This document shows positions 19,516-40,495 of a DNA stretch of 64,000 bases, one piece after another; the stretch's first letter is position 1; each line of letters begins with the position of its first letter. The stretch lies in NCBI GenBank assembly GCA_038058635.1, contig JBBUAP010000004.1:31196-95195 (forward strand). The letters run 5' to 3'. The stretch is from Patescibacteria group bacterium. Its GTDB lineage: Bacteria; Patescibacteriota; UBA1384; 2-12-FULL-50-11. Made by a program: the position numbers and the translations under genes. The notes under the pieces are model-generated. The model made no database searches. It was not told where the DNA came from and was given only the letters and a program-made list of their open reading frames with translations.

Positions 19516-19589
19516 GATGAACGCATTCGCTTGACGCGTTTGTTTACATCAACGACTACGATATGAGCCCCGCAAGGGGCGAGGTGGAT

Positions 19590-20513
19590 ATGAGAAAAGT
19601 ACTATGGATCATCGTCGCCCTGTTGGTTGCCACTCAGGCATTCGCGGGGCGATACAAGAAAACCTGGGAGGATGTCGGCCAAGTCTCCGTCGCGCTTTTC
19701 GACGACGAAGACGGGCACCAGAAGATCCTCTTCCGAGGATTACCAATGACAGCTGACCGGACACCAGGTCCCGCAGTCATGCGGTTCAACGGTGTCAACA
19801 TCGCTCAATGGAATGCGCCGACTTACGAATTCGAGTTCGATGTCGACGCCGGGTTCATCCCCGCTCTGCAGGGCAACCCAAGAAAGGGTGGCGAGTTGGT
19901 GATTCCGTGGCTGAAGAGCGACGCGAATCAGAAAGTCGATTTACGGCGGCTTGCCGTTGGCAAGAATACCGTCGAGATTTACTTTCTGTCTAAGGACGGT
20001 AACGGCAAACTGGACCGAAACCGAAGCGCTGCGCCAGCAACGCAATTTATCCTTGAGGAGACAGACCCGCCTCCAGCGGCCAATACCGCGAAAGGTGAAG
20101 TCTTGTCCACTACCCAGCTCGAAGCTGCGATCAAGCAGTCCTACGAGCAGGGAGCGAGTGAGGGCAAAGCCGCTGCCGCGCAAGAGCGCGAACAGCTGCT
20201 AGTTGAGTTGAAGAAGGCAACAGACGAGCTCAACGAGCTCCGTCGGCAAGTTGCCTTGAATACTCAGCCGAGAACAATGCCTTTGGGGCAGCGCTACCTA
20301 CCAATCAAATGCCAACTGCGGCAGGAGGATTGGCCCAAACTGGGTGATGAAATGGAATTGGTGGATTCGGCCGGAAGGTCGGTTGCCAAGGCCAAAGTAG
20401 TCGAGACTGTTCACGGGATCGGTCGATACTGGATCTCGGTGACCGTTCCGGTCGACTTCGACCCGGCTGGTCACACTGTACGGCGGCCGAACGGCCGCAA
20501 GGAGAATAGGTAA
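19590..20513 (+). CDS. Secreted hypothetical protein with C-terminal coiled coil (ORF opens at 19563; probable start at the second Met)
   Basis: Signal peptide MRKVLWIIVALLVATQAFAG begins at the second Met, which follows a GAGGTGG RBS; the coiled-coil-like segment is EQLLVELKKATDELNELRRQVAL. Confidence 0.5.
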   Translation: MRKVLWIIVALLVATQAFAGRYKKTWEDVGQVSVALFDDEDGHQKILFRGLPMTADRTPGPAVMRFNGVNIAQWNAPTYEFEFDVDAGFIPALQGNPRKGGELVIPWLKSDANQKVDLRRLAVGKNTVEIYFLSKDGNGKLDRNRSAAPATQFILEETDPPPAANTAKGEVLSTTQLEAAIKQSYEQGASEGKAAAAQEREQLLVELKKATDELNELRRQVALNTQPRTMPLGQRYLPIKCQLRQEDWPKLGDEMELVDSAGRSVAKAKVVETVHGIGRYWISVTVPVDFDPAGHTVRRPNGRKENR

Positions 20514-20517
20514 GGAC

Positions 20518-21483
20518 ATGAAACTCCTGAAAGTTTTACTCGCGGCTTTGGCCGCGAGTCTCGTCATTCCGGTCTTTGCTCAGAACGAAGGCGAGTACCT
20601 GGATCTATCCAAGGACCAGTTCGTAGCTGGGGGTATGACCTCAAGCGGGATCGCCAATGAGCTCTTGCCGGCTTTTGCTGGCTATGCTCCGAAGGAGAAG
20701 GCCGACGAGGTGATCTCGTTTGCCTTCAACTACGATATCCCGAAGCTTCAACTAGCTTTTCGGGATTCGAAAGGGAAGGTGCACACTCGCACCGGCAAGC
20801 TCGCCAAAGGCGAGAAGCTCATTTCGACGGTCAACTCCAAAACTCGCCAAGGTGGCATTTGGTTGGTTGACGCGACTGTGCGTTGGGCGCAGCATTGCGG
20901 TAACCCGCTGCCGTCACCCTTCCGGGTGACGCTCTGGATCCCGGACTGGTCGCAAGACCGGATCGTCGTCCAGAGAGTGGAAATACTGAAACCATATGCT
21001 GTCACGGTCCGTGAAAATGTCATCGTTCAGCAACTGATTCCAACCCTCGGCAATGTGGAGCTCAACCTGCCGCCGGTGGAGCGCGGCCGGTACAAGCTGA
21101 CGGTCGTTGGAAACGAGGGCGCAGGACATCGCTGGGAGTATGTGAAGTCCTTCTGGGACAACTTCCTAGACTTCCTGCGCGTTGCCGCTTTCCCGATCGG
21201 ACAACTCGTTCGTCGGGCGGACAACCTATCCATCAACACCTCCTCGCAAGGAGGAGCGGGTGGCAATGGTTATGGTGCAGCGGCAGCGGCTGCTTCATCC
21301 TCGTCTTCGTCGTCCTCGACGTCGGCGACGCCAACCTCCGCAGCCGGTACTTCTGGCTCTGGCGGATCGTCTGCTGGCGGCGCTGCTGGCGGAGGCGGCA
21401 ACGACACGACAGGAACCGGTTCGGGCGGAATGCCTGAATTGGTTCTCTTCTTTGAGCGGACTTGGTTGCAAGTCGCAGCCTAG
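20518..21483 (+). CDS. Secreted hypothetical protein with Gly/Ser/Ala-rich C-terminal region
   Basis: Signal peptide MKLLKVLLAALAASLVIPVFAQ; low-complexity tail [31 protein letters not shown]... Confidence 0.5.
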   Translation: MKLLKVLLAALAASLVIPVFAQNEGEYLDLSKDQFVAGGMTSSGIANELLPAFAGYAPKEKADEVISFAFNYDIPKLQLAFRDSKGKVHTRTGKLAKGEKLISTVNSKTRQGGIWLVDATVRWAQHCGNPLPSPFRVTLWIPDWSQDRIVVQRVEILKPYAVTVRENVIVQQLIPTLGNVELNLPPVERGRYKLTVVGNEGAGHRWEYVKSFWDNFLDFLRVAAFPIGQLVRRADNLSINTSSQGGAGGNGYGAAAAAASSSSSSSSTSATPTSAAGTSGSGGSSAGGAAGGGGNDTTGTGSGGMPELVLFFERTWLQVAA

Positions 21484-28547: not shown

Positions 28548-29330
28548 ATGGACGAAACGCAAACAAAACTTAAAAAACTGCGCACATTCAACCGGGTGAT
28601 GTTTTTCTTACATGCGGCGCAAGGCGTGGCAATTCTACTCTTGAGCACCAACTTCACAGTACCCGTCAATGCTAGCTATCTGACATTTGATGTCGCAACA
28701 CAATCGCTCCTGCCGGCCTCGAGCGAACTATTTCGAATGTCGCTCGCCTGGCTTGTGGCGGCGTTTTTCTTTATCTCGGCTTTTGCCCACCTTTCGATCG
28801 CCACCTACTACAACAAAAACTACAATGCCAATCTCCTGCGCGGCCTGAACAAAGCTCGTTGGTGGGAGTACTCGATCTCAGCGTCGATAATGCTGATCGC
28901 CATCGCCATGCTGGTGGGAATATATGATTTCGGTACCTTAGTGCTGATATTTGGCCTCGGCGCGGCGATGAATATGATGGGCCTGATGATGGAAACGCAC
29001 AATTTGGGTGTGCTCGAGCGCGGCGACAAGCCGAATTGGCTAGCATTCAAACTCGGCTCGTTTGCTGGAGTAATTCCGTGGCTAATAATTGCCTTGGGTT
29101 TTTACTGGAGCAGCCGATTTAGCGGCGCTCAACCACCAACATTCGTTTACTGGATTTACGTTTCAATCTTCGTTTTCTTCAACTGCTTTGCGATTAATAT
29201 GTTCCTGCAGTACAAGCAAATCGGCCGTTGGCGCGACTACCTCTACGGCGAGCGAGCGTTTATTATCTTAAGCTTGGTCGCCAAGTCTTTATTGGCCTGG
29301 CAGGTTTTTGCCGGAACACTCCGGCCGTAA
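28548..29330 (+). CDS. Heliorhodopsin (inverted-topology microbial rhodopsin)
   Basis: 260 aa 7-TM protein; it aligns with heliorhodopsin 48C12 across FNR...HxxQ, RWWEYxxSASxM (counterion Glu) and IGRWRDY...LSLVAKSLLAWQV (Schiff-base Lys in TM7). Confidence 0.85.
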   Translation: MDETQTKLKKLRTFNRVMFFLHAAQGVAILLLSTNFTVPVNASYLTFDVATQSLLPASSELFRMSLAWLVAAFFFISAFAHLSIATYYNKNYNANLLRGLNKARWWEYSISASIMLIAIAMLVGIYDFGTLVLIFGLGAAMNMMGLMMETHNLGVLERGDKPNWLAFKLGSFAGVIPWLIIALGFYWSSRFSGAQPPTFVYWIYVSIFVFFNCFAINMFLQYKQIGRWRDYLYGERAFIILSLVAKSLLAWQVFAGTLRP

Positions 29331-29976: not shown

Positions 29977-30801
29977 ATGAAAAAGATTTGGTGGATTGTA
30001 ATAGCGTTCGTCGTTTTAGTGGTGCTCTTTTTGATCGGCGGAGAGGTGTATAAACGACAAACCAATCCTCAAACAGCAACCAGCAGTACCGAAAATGGTG
30101 AAGCGCCGACAATCACGGCGAATTTTGTTGATCTGGATAAGATTGCCGCAATTACTAAATTTCGCAGTTGTCAGGGGCACATCGTCGTCCCGCAAGACGG
30201 TTCAGAAACCAGAAGTAATATGAAGCACTATCTTTATCTTAAAAAAGAATCCACCTCGGCTCGGCGACTAGTGAAATTGTACGCGCCGTTCGATGGATTT
30301 GTCAGCGACATCTATAAAGGCGACGAAGATTTTAGTGATCGTGATCCGGCTTCGCGGGACCTGACCGTAAGCAAGTCCAAGGGCCTCGGCGCTCGCAGTG
30401 ATTGGGGTTTTTCCTTTTTGCACATTGAGCCGCTCGATGGCCTGAAAGAAGGTAACGCAGTTAAGGCGGGAGAACTGCTTGGCTATGTCTCTCTCGAGCT
30501 AATCCCACCGTATTATGCCTTTGACGTTGTCTATGCCAAGATGGGGTCATTCCCCAAGAAAATCGACAAGTGGAACAGCCCGTACGCCGCTCTGGAATCG
30601 GCCTTTGCTCATATGGACAGCGATACCCTAGCCAAGTTTTCTGTTTTTGACGTCGATTCAGCTGACGACTTTGCCATTACTAAAGCAACCCGTGACGCCG
30701 CACCGTGCCAGTACGGCCCCGATGGCCGACAGTTCAACCAAGAGCGAGATGAGAATTGGTACAATGATTGGGTGGGCGACATAAACGATGCGGTAAACTA
30801 G
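29977..30801 (+). CDS. Membrane-anchored hypothetical protein, divergent LytM/M23-like domain (paralog A)
   Basis: N-terminal signal anchor MKKIWWIVIAFVVLVVLFLIGG; degenerate M23-like motifs (GHIVVPQDG, APFDGFV, LHIEPL...VKAGELLGYV). Confidence 0.45.
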   Translation: MKKIWWIVIAFVVLVVLFLIGGEVYKRQTNPQTATSSTENGEAPTITANFVDLDKIAAITKFRSCQGHIVVPQDGSETRSNMKHYLYLKKESTSARRLVKLYAPFDGFVSDIYKGDEDFSDRDPASRDLTVSKSKGLGARSDWGFSFLHIEPLDGLKEGNAVKAGELLGYVSLELIPPYYAFDVVYAKMGSFPKKIDKWNSPYAALESAFAHMDSDTLAKFSVFDVDSADDFAITKATRDAAPCQYGPDGRQFNQERDENWYNDWVGDINDAVN

Positions 30802-30807
30802 GAGACC

Positions 30808-32019
30808 ATGAAAAAGATTTGGTGGATTGTAATTGGGGTTGTGGTGGTTATAGTAATCATTAGTGGAGTGGTCTGGAGCAAATCACGAAGCCAACAAAAT
30901 GGTTCAAGGGTTAACGTTCCTTCGGCTGATAGTGGCCAGAGCCAAAAAGACAGTATTGCGGTTGCGGCCGGTAAAATGCTAACTAACAACAACTGCAAGG
31001 GCGAGGGGCCGGGCGTGCTAACTCGCTTGCCGATGGACGAGCCGGATTACGCTATGATTCTGCCTTACGGATTAATGGTTGGCGGTCATGTTACCCCCAT
31101 TGATCATCAATACTTTTCGCCGACGATCTTCAATTCGCCGCGCGACACCTATCCGGTTTACGCTATGGCCGATTCGAAGATAGTCGACATCCAACCCCGT
31201 ACAAACGAACGAGGAACGGAATATCGCTTTGTTTTCACGATGACCTGTACTTTTCAGTACTACTACGACTTGGTAACGAGTTTGACGCCGGAACTGAAAA
31301 CCGCCGTCGACAGTCGCCAGTTCAATATTGATGTTAAGGCAGGGGATTTGGTCGGACGAATTGGCGGCCAAACTTTGGATTTTGCAGTCTGGGACACCAC
31401 CAAGCCATTGAAAAATTTCGTTAACCCGAAGAGTTACGAAAGCGAAATCTGGAAAATCTACACCGCCGATCCGCTCGATTACTATACGCCCGAGATTAAA
31501 GTAAAAGCATTAGCGAAATACATTCGTACCACCGCTCCATTATCTGGCCGGATTGACTACGACATTGACGGCAAATTGATCGGCAGCTGGTTTTTGAAAG
31601 ACTCGGGCGGTTATGCCGGGCCAGGCGGAGGCAGCGAAGGTTACTGGGCGGGGCATTTAGCGATTGCGCCGGAGTATATCGACAATTCAGCAACAGTAAT
31701 TTCATTTGGGAGTTGGAACGGTGGCGAAGCCAAACAATTCACTGCCAAGAACCCGATTGACCCTGCTACTGTCGGTGTGGCGTCGGCGCTAACAAAATAC
31801 GAACTTTACGTGTCGCGCTACTACAAGCCCGACGGACAGATGTGGGACAATATGAAATTAGCCCACGACCTAAAATTGAAGATAAGTGAAAGTGAGCTTG
31901 GTGGCTGTGTCTTATTCCAGCTCACCAGCGCTCGCGAGTTGAGAGTGGAACAATTCGCCAAGAAAAAATGTACCGCAGTGGCTGGGTTTAGCGGTCAGGA
32001 AAAAACCTACGAACGCTAG
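30808..32019 (+). CDS. Membrane-anchored hypothetical protein, divergent LytM/M23-like domain (paralog B)
   Basis: Same N-terminus MKKIWWIVI (the first 26 nt are identical to paralog A); GGHVTPIDHQ, YAMADSKIVDI, VKAGDLVGRIGG. Confidence 0.45.
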   Translation: MKKIWWIVIGVVVVIVIISGVVWSKSRSQQNGSRVNVPSADSGQSQKDSIAVAAGKMLTNNNCKGEGPGVLTRLPMDEPDYAMILPYGLMVGGHVTPIDHQYFSPTIFNSPRDTYPVYAMADSKIVDIQPRTNERGTEYRFVFTMTCTFQYYYDLVTSLTPELKTAVDSRQFNIDVKAGDLVGRIGGQTLDFAVWDTTKPLKNFVNPKSYESEIWKIYTADPLDYYTPEIKVKALAKYIRTTAPLSGRIDYDIDGKLIGSWFLKDSGGYAGPGGGSEGYWAGHLAIAPEYIDNSATVISFGSWNGGEAKQFTAKNPIDPATVGVASALTKYELYVSRYYKPDGQMWDNMKLAHDLKLKISESELGGCVLFQLTSARELRVEQFAKKKCTAVAGFSGQEKTYER

Positions 32020-32117: not shown

Positions 32118-32156
32118 AGTTAAAACAATAGATAGAATAGAAGGGAGGTGAATACA

Positions 32157-32321
32157 ATGGACAAACATTACGCTTGCCCAGGTGGTTGCGGTGGCTCGGC
32201 GATAGACGAGAAAGCTTGCGATACCGAGGGTTGTGAAAAAAACGGTGAAATGATGAAGGAGTGCGACTGCCACGACAACGAGCACGCTCAAGTCATGGAA
32301 CCAACCGGCGAAATCGCCTAA
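32157..32321 (+). CDS. Small Cys/His-rich acidic protein (54 aa), putative metal-binding
   Basis: MDKHYACPGGCGGSAIDEKACDTEGCEKNGEMMKECDCHDNEHAQVMEPTGEIA; excellent RBS AAGGGAGGTG 7 nt upstream; it falls below the 60 aa ORF cutoff. Confidence 0.45.
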   Translation: MDKHYACPGGCGGSAIDEKACDTEGCEKNGEMMKECDCHDNEHAQVMEPTGEIA

Positions 32322-34212: not shown

Positions 34213-34524
34213 ATGGTGGAGAGGGGAAAGCGGCCAGAGTTCCAAACAGGGGCGCCCGAAATAAAAGTGGCACCGGAATTTCCGGGGGACGATAGCTCTT
34301 CTAGTTTCGAACACAATCCGGCTGGTTTACCGTCTGCCACTCCTGAAATTACACCGGCTCCATCAGTATCCTCTCCAGAATCGAGATTACCATCTGACGG
34401 AGAGCCTGTGATTCATAGCCACGACCAGACGGTGGGTTTTGAGGAAATTCCTAAAGGTGAAAATACGCTGCGTGACCAAGATACGGTCGACGCAGTGTTT
34501 GAAAGGGAAGCAAGAAGTCAATGA
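34213..34524 (+). CDS. Small Pro/Ser-rich disordered protein (hypothetical), translationally coupled to the next gene
   Basis: 103 aa low-complexity protein; ATGA overlap with the downstream ATPase gene; no obvious SD, so the call is tentative. Confidence 0.35.
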   Translation: MVERGKRPEFQTGAPEIKVAPEFPGDDSSSSFEHNPAGLPSATPEITPAPSVSSPESRLPSDGEPVIHSHDQTVGFEEIPKGENTLRDQDTVDAVFEREARSQ

Positions 34525-36962
34525 GTGACTTTCTGCCGACCTATCTTATCTACACCATCTTAGCCGCGATTGTCATCCTGCCGTTGGCGCTAATGTGGTT
34601 TTTCCGTTATTGGCAGAAAAAGGATGCGCTAGGCGATGTTAACTCTTTAGTTTGTCTATTGGTGTCGCTGCCGAAAGAAGCGACCATCGATCCGCACGCC
34701 GCCAACGAACCCGTCAAAGACTTCAAGGGTTTGATTGCGCCGACAGAACAATTTTACTCGGCGCTAACAACAATAATTCACCAGCGTCATTTTATCGACT
34801 GGCTTTTTAGCACCCCCGCTCACATTAGCTTTGAAATCTATTCAGTCGGTGGCGTGATTTCGTTTGGAATTATCTGTCCAAAGCGGATTCGAACGATCGT
34901 TGAACGACAGGTTCACAGTTTTTTCCACAATGCTCAAATAGTCATTGGTGTCCCACCGAAGGTCTTCACTAGCGAACAAGAACATGTCTCGGGCGTTGTA
35001 TTCGAACAAGGTAAGAACTTTGTCCTCCCCCTCAAGACCTATCAGTATCTTGAGGCTGATCCGCTTAATACTCTAACGACAGCGCTGACCAAATTGCAGG
35101 GCTCGGGCGCCGCTACAATTCAAATGCTGATTCGGCCGATTAGCGACAATTGGCGGATGCACACTGGTATTGCCAGCGGCCATGTTGTCGCAAATAAAAT
35201 GCACCTCGTTAACCGGACTGGTACTGCTCGAGTTCTTGGTACCATTGGTGAAGCAATAAAAACCTCCCCACCGACAGAAATCTCAAAGCAAACCCAGCGC
35301 TCGCCAGCGCAAGAGGAGTTGCTAAAAGCCCTTCAAGAAAAAGGCAATAAAACTGGCTTCGAAACTATCATTCGAGTGCTGGCAACTGGCGACACTCCGA
35401 CGGCAGCCGAAGAAAACACCAAGGCATTGATTAGCTCCTTTTCCCAGTTTTACTCACCGCAATTAAATAGTCTGAAATACCGCCAGATCGAACAAAAACG
35501 AATTTCACGCGATTATCTGCTCCGACTGTTTTCCGGCGCGCCAAAGATGATTTTGAATGTCGAGGAGTTGGCTAGTATTTATCACTTCCCAAATCGTTTC
35601 AGCGAAGTCCCGGGGATGAAATGGGTCTTGGCCAAAACTTTGCCATCACCACCAAACTTGCCCAAAGAGGGAGTGGTCATTGGCGAAAGTAATTATCGAG
35701 GCGAAAAAAATCTAGTTCGACTTCAGGACGAAGACCGCCGTCGTCATATCTTTATGATTGGCAAAACTGGTACTGGTAAGACGACGCTCTTTGAGATGAT
35801 GATCGAGCAGGATATGCATAACGGCAAAGGGCTTTGCTTTATCGATCCACTTGGCGACGCCATCGAGTCGCTATTAAAGAAAGTGCCGACGCACCGGGCT
35901 AATGATGTGATTGTGTTTGACCCGTCCGATATCAAATTTCCACTTGGCTTAAATCTACTTGAATACACCAAACCCGAAGAAAAAGACTTCTTAATTCAGG
36001 AAGTAATCGAGATATTCTACAAACTGTTCGACCCGAACCGGACTGGTATCGTTGGACCCCAGTGGGAGCATTGGGCGCGCAATGCCGCCCTGACGGTGAT
36101 GAGTCGCCCCGAAGGAGGGAGCTTAATCGATTTGCCCCGTCTTTTTACCGACGACGCTTTCCGAGAGGAATCAGTTTCGTTTGTCAGAGACCCGGTTGTC
36201 AAAGCCTTCTGGGAGCAACAGCTAGCCAAAACGGCCGACTTTCACAAATCGGAGATGTATAACTATTTCATCTCTAAGTTTGGCCGATTTATGACCAACG
36301 ATTTGATGCGTAATATTATCGGACAAACCAAAAGCTCTTTTGACCTAAGGGAATTGATGGATTCCGGCAAGATTTTGTTCGTCAACCTCGCCAAAGGTAA
36401 AATTGGCGAGATTAACTCAAATCTATTGGGCTTAATTTTGGTTTCAAAAATCCAAGTCGCGGCTTTCAGTCGGGCAGATACGCCCGAAGAACAGCGGAAA
36501 GATTTCTATCTTTATGTCGATGAGTTTCAGAACTTTACAACCGATACTTTCGCGACGATATTGGCCGAAGCTCGCAAATATCGCCTCAATCTTAATGTCA
36601 CCAATCAGTATTTCGCCCAACTGACCGAACATATTCGTGACGCCGTTATTGGTAATGTGGGAACACTAATTTCCTATCGTATCGGTGCTGAGGACGGCGA
36701 GTATTTAGTCAAAGAAATGCCCGGACTAACGGCCGAAGACCTGACTAACCTTGATCGGTTCCAGGCATATGTTAAACTTCTAATCGATCTGACTCCAAGC
36801 AAGCCGTTCTCGCTTTCGGGTATCAAAAGTGCCAACCCTGGTTCAGTTGAGATGTCCGATTGGCTCAAAAAGTCCACCCGGGCTAAATATACCAAGCAAC
36901 CAGTTGTCTTTGCCCCGATTGCTAAACCAGCAGAATCACCAGTAACCACCCCAAAACCATGA
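34521..36962 (+). CDS. Single-TM membrane protein with C-terminal FtsK/HerA-superfamily P-loop ATPase domain, VirD4/TrwB (type IV coupling protein)-like (paralog 1, 813 aa)
   Basis: N-terminal TM helix; ~400 aa unassigned domain; Walker A FMIGKTGTGKTT; Walker B-like FYLYVDEFQNF; Arg finger-like ARKYRLNLNVTNQ; homologous along its length to the next gene. Confidence 0.6.
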   Translation: MSDFLPTYLIYTILAAIVILPLALMWFFRYWQKKDALGDVNSLVCLLVSLPKEATIDPHAANEPVKDFKGLIAPTEQFYSALTTIIHQRHFIDWLFSTPAHISFEIYSVGGVISFGIICPKRIRTIVERQVHSFFHNAQIVIGVPPKVFTSEQEHVSGVVFEQGKNFVLPLKTYQYLEADPLNTLTTALTKLQGSGAATIQMLIRPISDNWRMHTGIASGHVVANKMHLVNRTGTARVLGTIGEAIKTSPPTEISKQTQRSPAQEELLKALQEKGNKTGFETIIRVLATGDTPTAAEENTKALISSFSQFYSPQLNSLKYRQIEQKRISRDYLLRLFSGAPKMILNVEELASIYHFPNRFSEVPGMKWVLAKTLPSPPNLPKEGVVIGESNYRGEKNLVRLQDEDRRRHIFMIGKTGTGKTTLFEMMIEQDMHNGKGLCFIDPLGDAIESLLKKVPTHRANDVIVFDPSDIKFPLGLNLLEYTKPEEKDFLIQEVIEIFYKLFDPNRTGIVGPQWEHWARNAALTVMSRPEGGSLIDLPRLFTDDAFREESVSFVRDPVVKAFWEQQLAKTADFHKSEMYNYFISKFGRFMTNDLMRNIIGQTKSSFDLRELMDSGKILFVNLAKGKIGEINSNLLGLILVSKIQVAAFSRADTPEEQRKDFYLYVDEFQNFTTDTFATILAEARKYRLNLNVTNQYFAQLTEHIRDAVIGNVGTLISYRIGAEDGEYLVKEMPGLTAEDLTNLDRFQAYVKLLIDLTPSKPFSLSGIKSANPGSVEMSDWLKKSTRAKYTKQPVVFAPIAKPAESPVTTPKP

Positions 36963-39900
36963 ATGTAGCGTTAATCAACCTAATCTTCACCGGCCTCTTT
37001 CTATTCGGGGCAACAATGTTGTGGTATCGGGCCAACAAATTTCGCAAGAAAATAAATTGGGAGGAGCCAGGCGCTTACAGCTTACTTTGCATTTCCGTGC
37101 CGAAAAACAACGAACGAACTCCCCAAGCGGCCGAGCAAATGTTTGCGGCCATGCACGGCATTTTCCGCTCTAGCGCCCAGCAACAGGCCCACCTTAGTTT
37201 TGAGATTGTTTCCAAAGCCCACGCCATCAATTTTTACACCTACGTGCCGACGGATTTGCGAGACTTCGTCTCGAGTCAAATTTTCGCTCAATATCCTACT
37301 GTCGAAATCAGGGAAATCGCGCCTGACGATGACTACACGACCTTAACCGACGAGAAACATATTGCCGCTACTGAACTTGATTTGAAAAAACCGACCGCTT
37401 TTCCGATTAAAACTTTTCAAAACTTTGAAGTTGATCCGCTCTCATCGATTGCTGGCGCTCTCTCCTCGGTCAATGAACAGGAGGAGGTTTGGGTACAGGT
37501 ACTGATCAGACCAATCGATGACGACTGGCAGGACTTGGGTAAAACCGAGGTTAAAAAGCTGAAAGATGGCTTCAAGTCGTTGGGTTTGAGGCAATTACTA
37601 AAAGCCGAGCTAAAGACCATGCTTTTCGATCTGACCAAGCACGCCCTAACAGGTCCACCTCCCGAAGAGAAGAAAAAAGACGACAAGAAAAAGGACGAGA
37701 AAGACACGCCGGAGTCGGCAGCGATTAAGGCGATCGAAGAGAAAATTACTAAACTCGGTTTCGCCACCAACATTCGAATTTTAGCGGCTGGTAGCGACGA
37801 GTATTCGGCTCGGGCTAAACTAGAACAGGTGGTCGGTGCTTTCAAACAATTCAATACTATCAACCTTAACGCCTTTATAGCTAAAGACATTACCAGCGAT
37901 CGGGCCGCTCATGAACTTTTTACGAGTAGAGTTTTTGGAGAGCACACCATGATTTTTAATATCACCGAACTGGCCTCAGTTTATCACTACCCATCGGAAA
38001 CAGTGGCGACCCCGACGATTGCCTGGGCGGGTTCAAAAAAGGGCGAACCACCAGCCAATCTGCCACTAGAAAATGTCGTGCCGGCCGACGAGCTAACAGT
38101 GTTTGGCCAGACTAACTTCCGTAGTCAGGTAAAGAGGTTTGGTATCAAAAGGAAAGATCGTCGCTTGCATATGTACATTATCGGTAAAACCGGCACCGGT
38201 AAATCGACGCTGATGGAGAATATGATTATCGACGATATTAATGAAGGCAGGGGAATGGCCGTAGTCGATCCACACGGTTCGCTCATTCAACATGTACTAG
38301 AATTTATCCCCGAAAACAGAATTCAGGATGTGATCTATTTTAACCCAGCCGATCACGAACACCCCGTCGGGTTCAATTTATTAGAAAATGTCGATCCCGA
38401 ACAGAAGAATATTGTTGCCTCCGGAGTAATCGGCATTATGGAGAAGATTTTCGGCGAAGTCTCTTGGGGCCCGCGATTGGAGTACATTTTGCGCAATGTT
38501 ATTTTAGCGCTTTTAGAATACCCAAACTCTACTTTCATGGGCATTATGAGAATATTGACCGACAACGCTTACCGACGACTGGTCGTCAACGAAGTCAAAG
38601 ATCCGGTCATTCGCGACTTCTTCATTAACGAGTTTGAGAAGTACGAGCCAAAGTTTCGAACTGAAGCGATCGCCCCGATTCAAAATAAGGTCGGCCAGTT
38701 TCTATCGGCCTCAACGATTCGCAACATTGTCGGCCAGCCTAAATCGACTATTGATATCCGCCGCATTATGGACGAGGGCAAAATACTCTTAGCTGACTTA
38801 TCGATCGGTAAGATCGGGGAAGACAACTCCGCCCTACTTGGCTCGATGTTGATTACCAAAATTCAGTTGGCGGCGATGGGGCGAGTCGATACGGCTGAAA
38901 GTGAACGGCGCGATTTTTACTTGTATGTTGATGAGTTTCAGAACTTTGCGACCGAATCGTTTGCGACTATTCTGTCGGAAGCCCGCAAGTACCGTCTCAA
39001 TCTGGCGATGGCCAACCAATATACGGCCCAAATGCCGGAAGCCGTTTCTAATGCCGTCTTTGGCAATGTCGGGACGATGATCAGCTTCCGCGTTGGGGCG
39101 CAAGATGCCGACACCTTGGTTAAAGAGTACGAGCCAGTCTTTGACGCTAATGACTTAGTTAATCTAGATAACTTCCAGATATACCTAAAGATGGCCATCG
39201 ACGGCGTGACTGTACCGGCCTTTTCGGCTGGTACATTGCCACCACGTACGGAGAAAACTCATCTTGTCGATCAAATCATTGCCAACAGTCGTCTGATGTA
39301 CTCACGACCGGTTGAGGAGGTAGAAGATTACATCACCGAATGGTCAACACCGATAAATTTGTCAGACCCTTCGAAGCAACCGATACCTCAACCCTACGAA
39401 GAACTGAAGACAAAGCCCAACGCCTTCGAGAAAGATAAAGCTCGCTCTCCAATCATCGGAGTAGAAGAGCAATCTAGTCCCCAGCCCCTAGCTCCTAGTC
39501 CCGACGAAGTAGGGGAGAGCGAAGAAAAAAAGGAAGCCGAAAAGGCGCCAAAAGTATTTGAGGAAGAGGGGACTGAAGCGACGAAAGCGGCCAAGACAGA
39601 GCCGGGTCGGGTGGAATTACCAAGAGGCATCAAGACCGAAATTATCAAAGACAGATTCGATCGACAGTGGTATGCGGTGACGGAAGAGGGCAAGATTCAA
39701 GGACCAGGATTAAAGAGTCAAGAGTTAAGTGATAATACTTCAGATGAGTCCAGTGTCCAGTCCCCAGTTCCTAGTCCCACTGAAAGTGGGGGAGAGAGGC
39801 AAGCCGAAGAAGAGTCTAGTTCTCAGTCCCTAGCTCCTAGTTCCACCGAAAGTGGGGGAGCAGAAGTCGTAGAAAATACAGAGCCTCCGGTCCAGAGTGG

Positions 39901-40042
39901 GGGAGAGGCGACCGAAAAAGACCAATTGATTAGCTGGGATGATATTGAGCAGCTTGATATCCAAGCACCAATTGAGCCAGTTAGCGAGCCAGTTCAAAGC
40001 AGTCCCGATCAGGGCCTGACGCCCTTGGACGAAATCCGTTAA
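36959..40042 (+). CDS. Single-TM membrane protein with VirD4/TrwB/FtsK-like P-loop ATPase domain and long acidic repeat-containing C-terminal tail (paralog 2, 1027 aa)
   Basis: TM helix MNVALINLIFTGLFLFGATMLWY; Walker A MYIIGKTGTGKST; Walker B FYLYVDEFQNF; ARKYRLNLAMANQ; ~250 aa Glu/Ser/Pro-rich tail with three ~60 nt repeats. Confidence 0.6.
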   Translation: MNVALINLIFTGLFLFGATMLWYRANKFRKKINWEEPGAYSLLCISVPKNNERTPQAAEQMFAAMHGIFRSSAQQQAHLSFEIVSKAHAINFYTYVPTDLRDFVSSQIFAQYPTVEIREIAPDDDYTTLTDEKHIAATELDLKKPTAFPIKTFQNFEVDPLSSIAGALSSVNEQEEVWVQVLIRPIDDDWQDLGKTEVKKLKDGFKSLGLRQLLKAELKTMLFDLTKHALTGPPPEEKKKDDKKKDEKDTPESAAIKAIEEKITKLGFATNIRILAAGSDEYSARAKLEQVVGAFKQFNTINLNAFIAKDITSDRAAHELFTSRVFGEHTMIFNITELASVYHYPSETVATPTIAWAGSKKGEPPANLPLENVVPADELTVFGQTNFRSQVKRFGIKRKDRRLHMYIIGKTGTGKSTLMENMIIDDINEGRGMAVVDPHGSLIQHVLEFIPENRIQDVIYFNPADHEHPVGFNLLENVDPEQKNIVASGVIGIMEKIFGEVSWGPRLEYILRNVILALLEYPNSTFMGIMRILTDNAYRRLVVNEVKDPVIRDFFINEFEKYEPKFRTEAIAPIQNKVGQFLSASTIRNIVGQPKSTIDIRRIMDEGKILLADLSIGKIGEDNSALLGSMLITKIQLAAMGRVDTAESERRDFYLYVDEFQNFATESFATILSEARKYRLNLAMANQYTAQMPEAVSNAVFGNVGTMISFRVGAQDADTLVKEYEPVFDANDLVNLDNFQIYLKMAIDGVTVPAFSAGTLPPRTEKTHLVDQIIANSRLMYSRPVEEVEDYITEWSTPINLSDPSKQPIPQPYEELKTKPNAFEKDKARSPIIGVEEQSSPQPLAPSPDEVGESEEKKEAEKAPKVFEEEGTEATKAAKTEPGRVELPRGIKTEIIKDRFDRQWYAVTEEGKIQGPGLKSQELSDNTSDESSVQSPVPSPTESGGERQAEEESSSQSLAPSSTESGGAEVVENTEPPVQSGGEATEKDQLISWDDIEQLDIQAPIEPVSEPVQSSPDQGLTPLDEIR
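39473..39915 (+). repeat. Three-plus imperfect ~60-66 bp tandem-like repeats inside the 3' end of the paralog-2 CDS
   Basis: Repeated peptide SSxQ(S/P)LAPS(P/S)TESGGE..EE at 39473-39526, 39748-39813, 39814-39873 (partial copy at 39883-39915). Confidence 0.7.
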
Positions 40043-40300
40043 AAACCCGTCCCCTCTCCAAGGGGAGAATTGTCAAATTTTTTAAATTTGTTTGGTAATT
40101 CCCCCACCTAGCCCCGGGGGAGAGTAGAGTGAAATTTACTGAAATTGACCCCATCTTGGCTACCTCTCTCGAAAGTCGTTTTTAGGCCAATTCCCCTGTT
40201 TCTAAATTTCTTGACGCACAAGATACATTGTACGTCAAAGATTATCTACCACCTCTTTACTTACTCTTTGGCTCTTGTATAATATTTCGAGAGGTGTTGA

Positions 40301-40495
40301 ATGTCAGACGTCTCTCACTCCAATATCGGCCTCCTCTTTATCTGTCCTGCATGTAATCACACAAACTTAGGTTTTGGCCTGGAACCTTATCAGTGTAAGG
40401 AATGTGGTCGGGAGTTCGAGTACATATCTGATACACTCGAGCTCATCGGTCAAGTCCGAAAGAAGATCGAAGAAGAACAGGAACAAGGGCAGTGA
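40301..40495 (+). CDS. Small zinc-ribbon protein with acidic C-terminus (hypothetical)
   Basis: CPACNH...CKECG ribbon; extended -10 TGTATAAT and GAGAGGTG RBS upstream. Confidence 0.45.
   Translation: MSDVSHSNIGLLFICPACNHTNLGFGLEPYQCKECGREFEYISDTLELIGQVRKKIEEEQEQGQ

Follow-up and report, generated by a model that had tools for sequence, protein, structure and literature searches.

The window analysed here (a 64,000-nucleotide stretch of contig JBBUAP010000004.1 from a Patescibacteria group bacterium) carries two adjacent genes, A and B, whose products are old paralogs belonging to a family of membrane-anchored, ring-type P-loop ATPases that is spread across the candidate phyla radiation (CPR) and inherited with the chromosome. 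Sequence comparison and a structure model together indicate that the architecture is that of a VirD4-type motor placed behind a VirB4-type front domain, with a membrane anchor fused to it. The family had been noticed in surveys and annotated, but it is functionally uncharacterised; what is new is that its architecture and the published essentiality of one of its members are now connected. A, B and the small open reading frame (ORF) in front of them were found at exactly the coordinates given for them in an earlier reading of the letters alone (the original prediction), as was every other ORF listed there. The features on which the argument depends are as follows.

34213–34524, + strand: small ORF, 103 amino acids (aa), disordered
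34521–36962, + strand: gene A, A-type protein with DUF8128 and a coupling-protein-like ATPase, 813 aa
34530–34613, + strand: transmembrane (TM) helix of A, approximately residues 4–31, then RYWQKK (Kyte-Doolittle; a long helix, 4–41, in the model)
34647–35705, + strand: DUF8128 domain of A, residues ~43–395, alpha/beta, predicted fold like the VirB4 N-terminal domain
35706–36890, + strand: TrwB/VirD4-type nucleotide-binding domain of A, residues ~396–790
35760–35783, 35979–36365, 36516–36536 and 36570–36590: Walker A, all-alpha insert, Walker B and ARKYRLN of the A motor
36959–40042, + strand: gene B, B-type paralog, 1027 aa, with TM helix, DUF8128 and ATPase as in A, plus a long tail
38135–39328, + strand: ATPase domain of B, with Walker A (38183–38206), Walker B (38927–38947) and ARKYRLN (38981–39001)

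A and B are homologous over their whole common length, as had been proposed (BLASTP, 36% identity over ~800 aa, E 1e-156), the N-terminal domains being 28% and the ATPase halves 45% identical. A Kyte-Doolittle scan bore out the single N-terminal TM helix foreseen for each protein: the only hydrophobic segment lies at the extreme N-terminus (residues 1–31 in A and 1–23 in B), and because basic residues come next, an N-out/C-in topology with the bulk of the protein in the cytoplasm is predicted. The motor motifs also lie where the original prediction had placed them (GKTGTGKT 414–421, VDEFQNF 666–672 and ARKYRLN 684–690 in A; GKTGTGKS 409–416 and VDEFQNF 657–663 in B), and conservation of Walker A, Walker B and ARKYRLN extends over 117 A-type and 120 B-type orthologs. 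The idea that Walker A is degenerate in A-type proteins was considered and rejected, as in the alignment 88 of 120 A orthologs differ merely by a T-to-V exchange (GKTGVGKT). Judged by sequence, both paralogs are catalytically intact. With Pfam scores read against gathering cut-offs, A matched T4SS-DNA_transf (32.8 bits, cut-off 20.1) and TrwB_AAD_bind (30.3 bits, cut-off 20.5), and B matched TrwB_AAD_bind (32.4 bits, cut-off 20.5), which supports the proposed likeness to TrwB/VirD4 P-loop ATPases, the type IV coupling proteins (T4CPs); an hhalign comparison with R388 TrwB gave 96.8% (E 2e-10). In the same check the VirB4-type models (P-loop_TraG, 10.8 bits vs 25.8; TIGR00929, 12.5 vs 643) and the DUF87/HerA models stayed below cut-off, in agreement with the lack of resemblance to VirB4 and HerA stated earlier. 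For FtsK, to which a likeness had likewise been suggested, the FtsK_SpoIIIE model (PF01580) scored 13.4 bits, below the cut-off of 24, and there was no gamma-domain match.

The domain between anchor and motor had been described as one without an assignable family. B is 100% identical to a protein from an NCBI Patescibacteria metagenome-assembled genome (MAG; P0121), and P0001 is 97% identical to A; the precomputed annotations of both proteins and of syntenic genes contain Pfam PF26449/DUF8128, although the window proteins gave no match to it in the local Pfam scan. In A this domain holds an invariant motif, ELASIYHFP (35565–35591). Searching with DUF8128 alone yielded 1,380 cluster representatives, in which the domain always lies 40–100 residues from the N-terminus and the host proteins, when complete, are 800–1,400 aa long; a literature search on DUF8128 found nothing. 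The AlphaFold2 model of A (predicted local distance difference test score 90, predicted template modelling score 0.81) contains a TM helix, an alpha/beta domain (~43–395) and a RecA-type core with an eight-helix insert (487–615) between Walker A and Walker B. The predicted fold of the DUF8128 domain matches the N-terminal domain of VirB4-type proteins (VirB4/TrwK, PDB 7o42 and 8rtd; also VirB3-VirB4 fusions). A link between this domain and VirB4 at the level of sequence was sought and not found, as hhalign against TrwK gave 1.3% and aligned the P-loop only. The boundary between the N-terminal domain and the ATPase is supported by B-type genes that are split at this point in seven metagenome loci (L102, L105, L106, L115, L117, L118 and L127), where one in-frame TAA or TAG stands right after the conserved PPxNLP motif and an ATG restart follows a few codons on, so that a TM + DUF8128 protein and a separate ATPase are encoded. 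Since the stops are TAA or TAG, single and placed at the boundary, these splits are read as gene fission rather than UGA recoding, and an alternative genetic code was rejected. The arrangement parallels TrsD + VirB4 of monoderm type IV secretion systems (T4SSs).

The suggestion in the original prediction of a lineage-specific system was not supported. Thousands of homologs exist in the databases, and wherever their source name is informative it is Patescibacteria/CPR. When one genome per GTDB species was scanned, the family was present in at least 598 species, a lower bound, from Microgenomates, Parcubacteria, Saccharibacteria, Peregrinibacteria and Gracilibacteria lineages and thus from all major CPR classes. 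A published survey reported 5,713 VirD4-type T4CP homologues in 2,918 of 3,035 CPR genomes, found only 148 of them near virB4 and suggested possible exaptation (Quinonero-Coronel et al. 2025, PMC12102498). That work treats the family as generic VirD4 homologues and is silent on the N-terminal VirB4-like fold, on the paralogy of A and B, on the small partner ORF and on the fact that the A-type is essential. The notion that about two T4CPs per genome correspond to A plus B was dropped; the published table gives 1–5 matches per genome with differing profile coverages, and further T4CP subfamilies may exist in CPR.

Relatives at 54–89% identity share the core gene order RF1-YbaB-Pth-L1-L10-L12-TGT-small ORF-A-B, in which SecF/SecD are encoded on the other strand; this is vertical inheritance and not a mobile element. 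Among the 54 window ORFs scanned (the unscanned ones are all shorter than 175 aa) there was no VirB4, VirB6, VirB8 or relaxase gene, as had been stated, and the window contains no T4SS or integrase genes, so the view that the locus is not a canonical T4SS or integrative conjugative element is upheld. The tandem A-B arrangement was found only in the wider lineage of the window, where A and B are adjacent in L001–L004, L086, L089, L159 and others, and where two variants also occur: A followed by a 177-aa protein and B (L002), and A followed by a 187-aa protein, a sigma-like gene and B (L006). The 177–187-aa protein directly downstream of A in these loci (L002 12599–13132; L006 8481–9044; 48% identical) is unannotated, and it does not lie between A and B in the window. 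Outside this wider lineage A-like genes stand alone, and in most lineages hundreds of genes lie between the A-type and the B-type gene. The stand-alone B-type genes have a context of their own, in which dprA...topA is followed by a Sigma70_r4/HARE-HTH gene and then by B, which faces the dcw cluster. This protein of ~350 aa with Sigma70_r4 and HARE-HTH domains is encoded immediately upstream of the stand-alone B-type gene in 15 of 17 loci (L092 8807–9904; L006 9068–10108). It is annotated as 'RpoS', is essential in Southlakia (SEML1_0294) and is absent from the window; a regulatory link between it and B is possible.

In a neighbour-joining tree (distance-based and midpoint-rooted, without outgroup or support values), the B-type clade is the sister of all A-like sequences. 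For divergent members of the B clade the score against B far exceeds that against A; one such member comes from Woesebacteria, a class in which A-like genes occur as well. From the tree, the reciprocal scores and the presence of both types in Woesebacteria, it is reasonable to infer that A-type and B-type genes are old paralogs and that their neighbourhood in the window is a secondary juxtaposition. A recent tandem duplication, which the first locus survey had suggested (one copy per locus elsewhere, with about equal scores to A and B), was rejected on the evidence of the tree, the stand-alone B-type loci and the reciprocal scores. Sixteen of 80 related genome loci are oddly labelled (e.g. L008, L015–L017 and L021–L023) yet carry typical CPR gene versions; 14 bear the names 'uncultured Gammaproteobacteria' or 'Pseudomonadales', one 'Nitrospirota' (L055) and one 'Bathyarchaeia' (L061). 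Those included in the tree fall inside CPR clades, so these contigs are probably mislabelled or mis-binned.

Functional information comes from the transposon sequencing of Southlakia epibionticum, a cultured relative and the one species that is genetically tractable (Table S1, Wang et al. 2023). SEML1_0142, the A-type ortholog, is scored ES/ES/ES, with 114 input insertions decreasing to 11/11/9, and SEML1_0141, a 139-aa ORF directly upstream of it, went from 9 insertions to 0 and is also essential (Wang et al. 2023). The latter is the positional counterpart of the 103-aa ORF of the window. SEML1_0138–0145 correspond one by one to the genes of Saccharibacteria locus L072, with agreement in length, strand and Pfam content, in the order YifB-type Mg-chelatase, two small ORFs, A-like gene, 192-aa ORF, DUF11 protein and GyrB; as L072 falls in the A-like clade, this synteny places window gene A in the ortholog group of SEML1_0142. 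SEML1_0293 ('T4SS DNA-binding domain-containing protein', 921 aa) is scored NE, with reads of 5817, 2940 and 1372 against flat neighbours (Wang et al. 2023), and is assigned to the B-type from context and length only, as it lies directly downstream of the 349-aa 'RpoS' gene. The published data thus show that Southlakia requires the A-type ortholog and the small ORF upstream of it, whereas the B-type is dispensable. Wang et al. 2023 take up neither SEML1_0142 nor SEML1_0293 in their main text, and only one, non-essential, Southlakia copy is mentioned by Quinonero-Coronel et al. 2025 (PMC12102498). The Southlakia genome also contains a complete, essential canonical FtsK; its T4SS cluster is essential and has no recognisable coupling protein. 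Deletion of comEC in this organism has been reported to abolish competence and leave viability unaffected.

The 103-aa protein encoded ahead of A is disordered, as had been described; it is acidic (isoelectric point, pI, 4.5), rich in Pro, Ser and Glu, and has no TM helix. The ORF is open at the same position in five close relatives (among them L163, L164, L165 and L001), in which it is 95–121 aa long and has a common M[VLK]ERG start and an acidic helical C-terminal end, with only ~20–30% identity in relatives whose A is 78–89% identical. Most A-like genes across CPR are preceded, at position −1 and on the same strand, by an ORF of 100–200 aa with a Pro/Glu/Gln/Ser-rich N-terminal part and a short helical C-terminal part. 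Homology of these ORFs is detectable within Microgenomates (hhalign 70–97%) and was not found between classes. The small partner is thus conserved in position and character, with demonstrable homology confined to Microgenomates.

B differs from A by its C-terminal tail, for which the following elements were recorded.

39329–40039, + strand: acidic disordered tail of B, 237 aa, pI 4.3
39320–39364 and 39632–39679: conserved motifs VEDYIxEWSxPINLS and KxEIxKDRFxRxWYA
39926–39961 and 40016–40039: conserved motif LI[ST]W[DE]xAExLG and C-terminal tip LxP[LI]DE[IL]
39466–39518, 39742–39794 and 39808–39860: 53-nt repeats

The tail thus carries four short motifs that are conserved, with variable acidic linkers between them; one of the four is the C-terminal tip, which is acidic-hydrophobic. 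The three repeats of which it had been said to be built do exist and are 53 nt long, but only two of them are adjacent (66-nt spacing), the other one being 276 nt further upstream. Tails of this kind serve to dock partners in TraD and DotL, and the conserved short motifs in the tail of B resemble those partner-docking tails.

Both ATGA overlaps noted in the original prediction are present, one between the stop of the small ORF and the start of A (CAATGAGT) and one between the stop of A and the start of B (CCATGAAT); the ATGA coupling is also seen in L163. No Shine-Dalgarno-like sequence was found upstream of the B start, and this, together with the overlaps, fits translational coupling. The sequence therefore supports coupling of A and B in the window.

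Compared with T4CPs (VirD4/TrwB/TraD, e.g. R388 TrwB, PDB 1e9r), A and B have the same TrwB-type nucleotide-binding domain with Walker A and Walker B and the same all-alpha insert between them. However, T4CPs usually possess two TM helices with the motor directly after, whereas A and B have one TM helix and the ~350-aa DUF8128 domain in between. T4CP genes are found with relaxase and mating-pair genes on mobile elements, whereas A and B are chromosomal, core, vertically inherited and unlinked, and form two old paralogs per lineage, one of them essential in Southlakia. VirB4/TrwK shares the predicted N-terminal fold, but A and B lack its sequence signature (CagE_TrbE_VirB / P-loop_TraG / TIGR00929), and their genes do not sit by VirB3/VirB6/VirB8 in a T4SS cluster as that of VirB4 does; CPR genomes contain a separate, bona fide VirB4 in the T4SS cluster beside this family. 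The HAS-barrel and the NurA partner of HerA are missing.

The most economical reading, to which we give about even chances, is that A and B serve the chromosomal CPR T4SS as unlinked coupling or energising ATPases, the VirB4-like domain being used for docking and the small acidic protein and the B tail as adaptors. The proteins would assemble into hexamer-like rings on the inner side of the membrane, by analogy with TrwB, VirB4 and HerA, and, powered by ATP, would move a macromolecular substrate through a membrane channel. The VirB4-like domain would be the docking module to VirB3/6/8-type membrane parts, and the B tail and the small acidic protein may be adaptor or substrate-recruitment elements; in the lineage of the window, A and B appear simply to have been brought together and translationally coupled. 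A link to the T4SS is considered because in Southlakia no coupling protein is recognisable in the T4SS cluster, essential though it is, and because the tail of B has conserved short motifs like those of TraD and DotL. Several observations weigh against this proposal. Neither in the window nor in ~160 related loci were T4SS genes seen to be linked, physically or genetically, to these genes, and co-essentiality with the T4SS is weak evidence, since many genes are essential. T4CP homologues occur in more CPR genomes (96%) than VirB4 does (80%; PMC12102498), although these figures do not prove independence from the T4SS, as the same figures could result if MAGs are incomplete and have several T4CP copies each. 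The single TM helix and the extra domain set A and B apart from every characterised T4CP, and the kinship of the N-terminal domain to VirB4 comes from predicted structure only, with no VirB4-like signal in the sequence (hhalign 1.3%). The midpoint rooting of the tree, with neither outgroup nor support values, is a further weakness.

A bolder version, which we regard as distinctly unlikely, is that the A-type ring and its small acidic partner form the essential cytoplasmic motor of a CPR-specific import route that is docked to the inner-membrane complex of the T4SS via the VirB4-like domain and pulls in host nucleic acid (RNA or DNA) or other macromolecules. If true, it would be the energy source with which bacteria that are unable to synthesise nucleotides feed on their hosts, and its architecture would be an intermediate between VirB4 and VirD4 ATPases that has survived. 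A large part of bacterial diversity belongs to CPR/Patescibacteria, which subsist on material taken from host cells, and their T4SS is essential, without a known substrate or recognised coupling protein. The family described here is near-universal and part of the core genome, and the published essentiality data had not been connected to it. A motor that is VirD4-type by sequence behind a front that is VirB4-type by predicted fold leads to a concrete docking hypothesis, and this hybrid build is relevant to the relationship between the two signature ATPase families of T4SSs.

Other readings were weighed against the proposed T4SS role. TrwB-type motors bind and move nucleic acid, and A-type and/or B-type rings could, with a channel of their own and independently of any T4SS, import or export nucleic acid or protein, for example host RNA or DNA, which CPR need as they are unable to make nucleotides. 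Such an arrangement would account for the scarcity of these genes near T4SS genes (148 of 5,713 near virB4; none in the ~160 loci) and for their presence in more genomes than VirB4, and it is in line with the essentiality of the A-type and with the host-RNA uptake reported for a CPR bacterium. However, no conserved candidate channel gene adjoins A or B, one TM helix per protein does not make a pore alone, the difference between 96% and 80% may stem from incomplete MAGs, and the modelled VirB4-like docking domain points to T4SS-type partners; we regard this reading, the main rival, as tentative and somewhat unlikely. An obligate hetero-oligomer of the A3B3 type, with both paralogs in one mixed ring, is suggested by the ATGA coupling in the window and L163, by the adjacency of A and B in the other loci of the wider lineage listed above, by the intact catalytic motifs of both and by their retention over long evolutionary time. 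The two-subunit machine that the original prediction implied is nevertheless improbable, as the two types are hundreds of genes apart in most lineages, only one of them is essential in Southlakia, and their tails and partner ORFs differ.

The original prediction also connected A and B with competence, and a DNA-uptake motor acting with type IV pili (T4P), ComEC and DprA would fit the T4P cluster, dprA, topA and recR of the window, the stand-alone B-type genes a few kb from dprA-topA, and the dispensability of the B-type, which is shared by competence genes. We find this very improbable: a comEC deletion is viable whereas the A-type ortholog is essential, recurrent linkage to T4P or ComEC genes was not seen across ~160 loci, and proximity to dprA-topA is ordinary core synteny. 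A chromosome-segregation translocase of the FtsK/SpoIIIE kind at the division site would draw on a common ATPase superfamily, on the stand-alone B-type genes that abut the dcw cluster and on the ftsZ/ftsA and ftsW genes in the window, but A and B lack the alpha and gamma domains and the 4TM region of these proteins, and the canonical FtsK coexists as a separate protein in CPR (Southlakia), so that this reading is largely refuted and hardly credible. The least credence of all is given to the view that the genes are a relic of a conjugative element or encode an ATPase of anti-phage defence (HerA/mad8-like). The T4CP Pfam matches, the PADLOC mad8 match (61 bits) and weak HerA matches on the ATPase half could be cited for it; against it stand the housekeeping synteny conserved at 54–70% protein identity, the lack of relaxase, integrase, tRNA or defence partners, and a composition that is not atypical. 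Membership in a defence system was rejected, since the PADLOC matches are at the ATPase level only.

Two further features lie downstream of B.

40050–40066: GC-rich hairpin directly 3′ of the B stop, then a T-rich stretch on the + strand (consensus scan only)
40301–40495, + strand: Zn-ribbon ORF, 64 aa, CxxC...CxxC

The hairpin is, from its sequence, the probable end of the transcription unit. The Zn-ribbon protein that had been noted after B is indeed encoded there but is excluded from the unit, as it has no homolog in any related locus, is separated from B by the hairpin and a 258-nt gap, and has a promoter-like site of its own (40256–40283). This orphan ORF may or may not be a real gene.

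The window is otherwise of housekeeping character, with no tRNA genes and no composition anomaly. Upstream of A it contains a T4P cluster, ftsW, L21, nusG, dprA, topA, recR, cysS, RF1, ybaB, pth, L1, L10, L7/L12, heliorhodopsin, msrA and tgt, and downstream of B secFD, rluD, an AddA-like helicase-nuclease, thioredoxin, a class II ribonucleotide reductase, ftsZ and ftsA. The heliorhodopsin gene (28548–29330, +; Pfam 309 bits), located between L7/L12 and msrA, looks like a lineage-specific insertion, because L001 and L002 pass from L12 straight to His_Phos/TGT. L1 (24515–25465, +, 316 aa) and L10 (27282–28091, +, 269 aa) are unusually long; as L10 has 171–173 aa in L001 and L002, an extension of ~100 aa is assigned to the lineage of the window. 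Two adjacent genes (29977–30801 and 30808–32019, +) encode proteins of 274 and 403 aa without Pfam matches and with a common leader or TM segment 'MKKIWWIVI...', by which they may be paralogous secreted or anchored proteins. They are followed by a 57-aa Cys/His-rich ORF (32148–32321, +; CPGGCGG...CDTEGC...CDCHDNEH), possibly a metal-binding peptide, and in L163 a 54-aa gene is called before His_Phos at the equivalent position. Two ORFs of 316 and 321 aa without Pfam matches follow cysS (19563–21483, +) and run into the 20–22 kb segment, the most GC-rich of the window (0.565 vs ~0.48); L001 has unannotated genes in their place.

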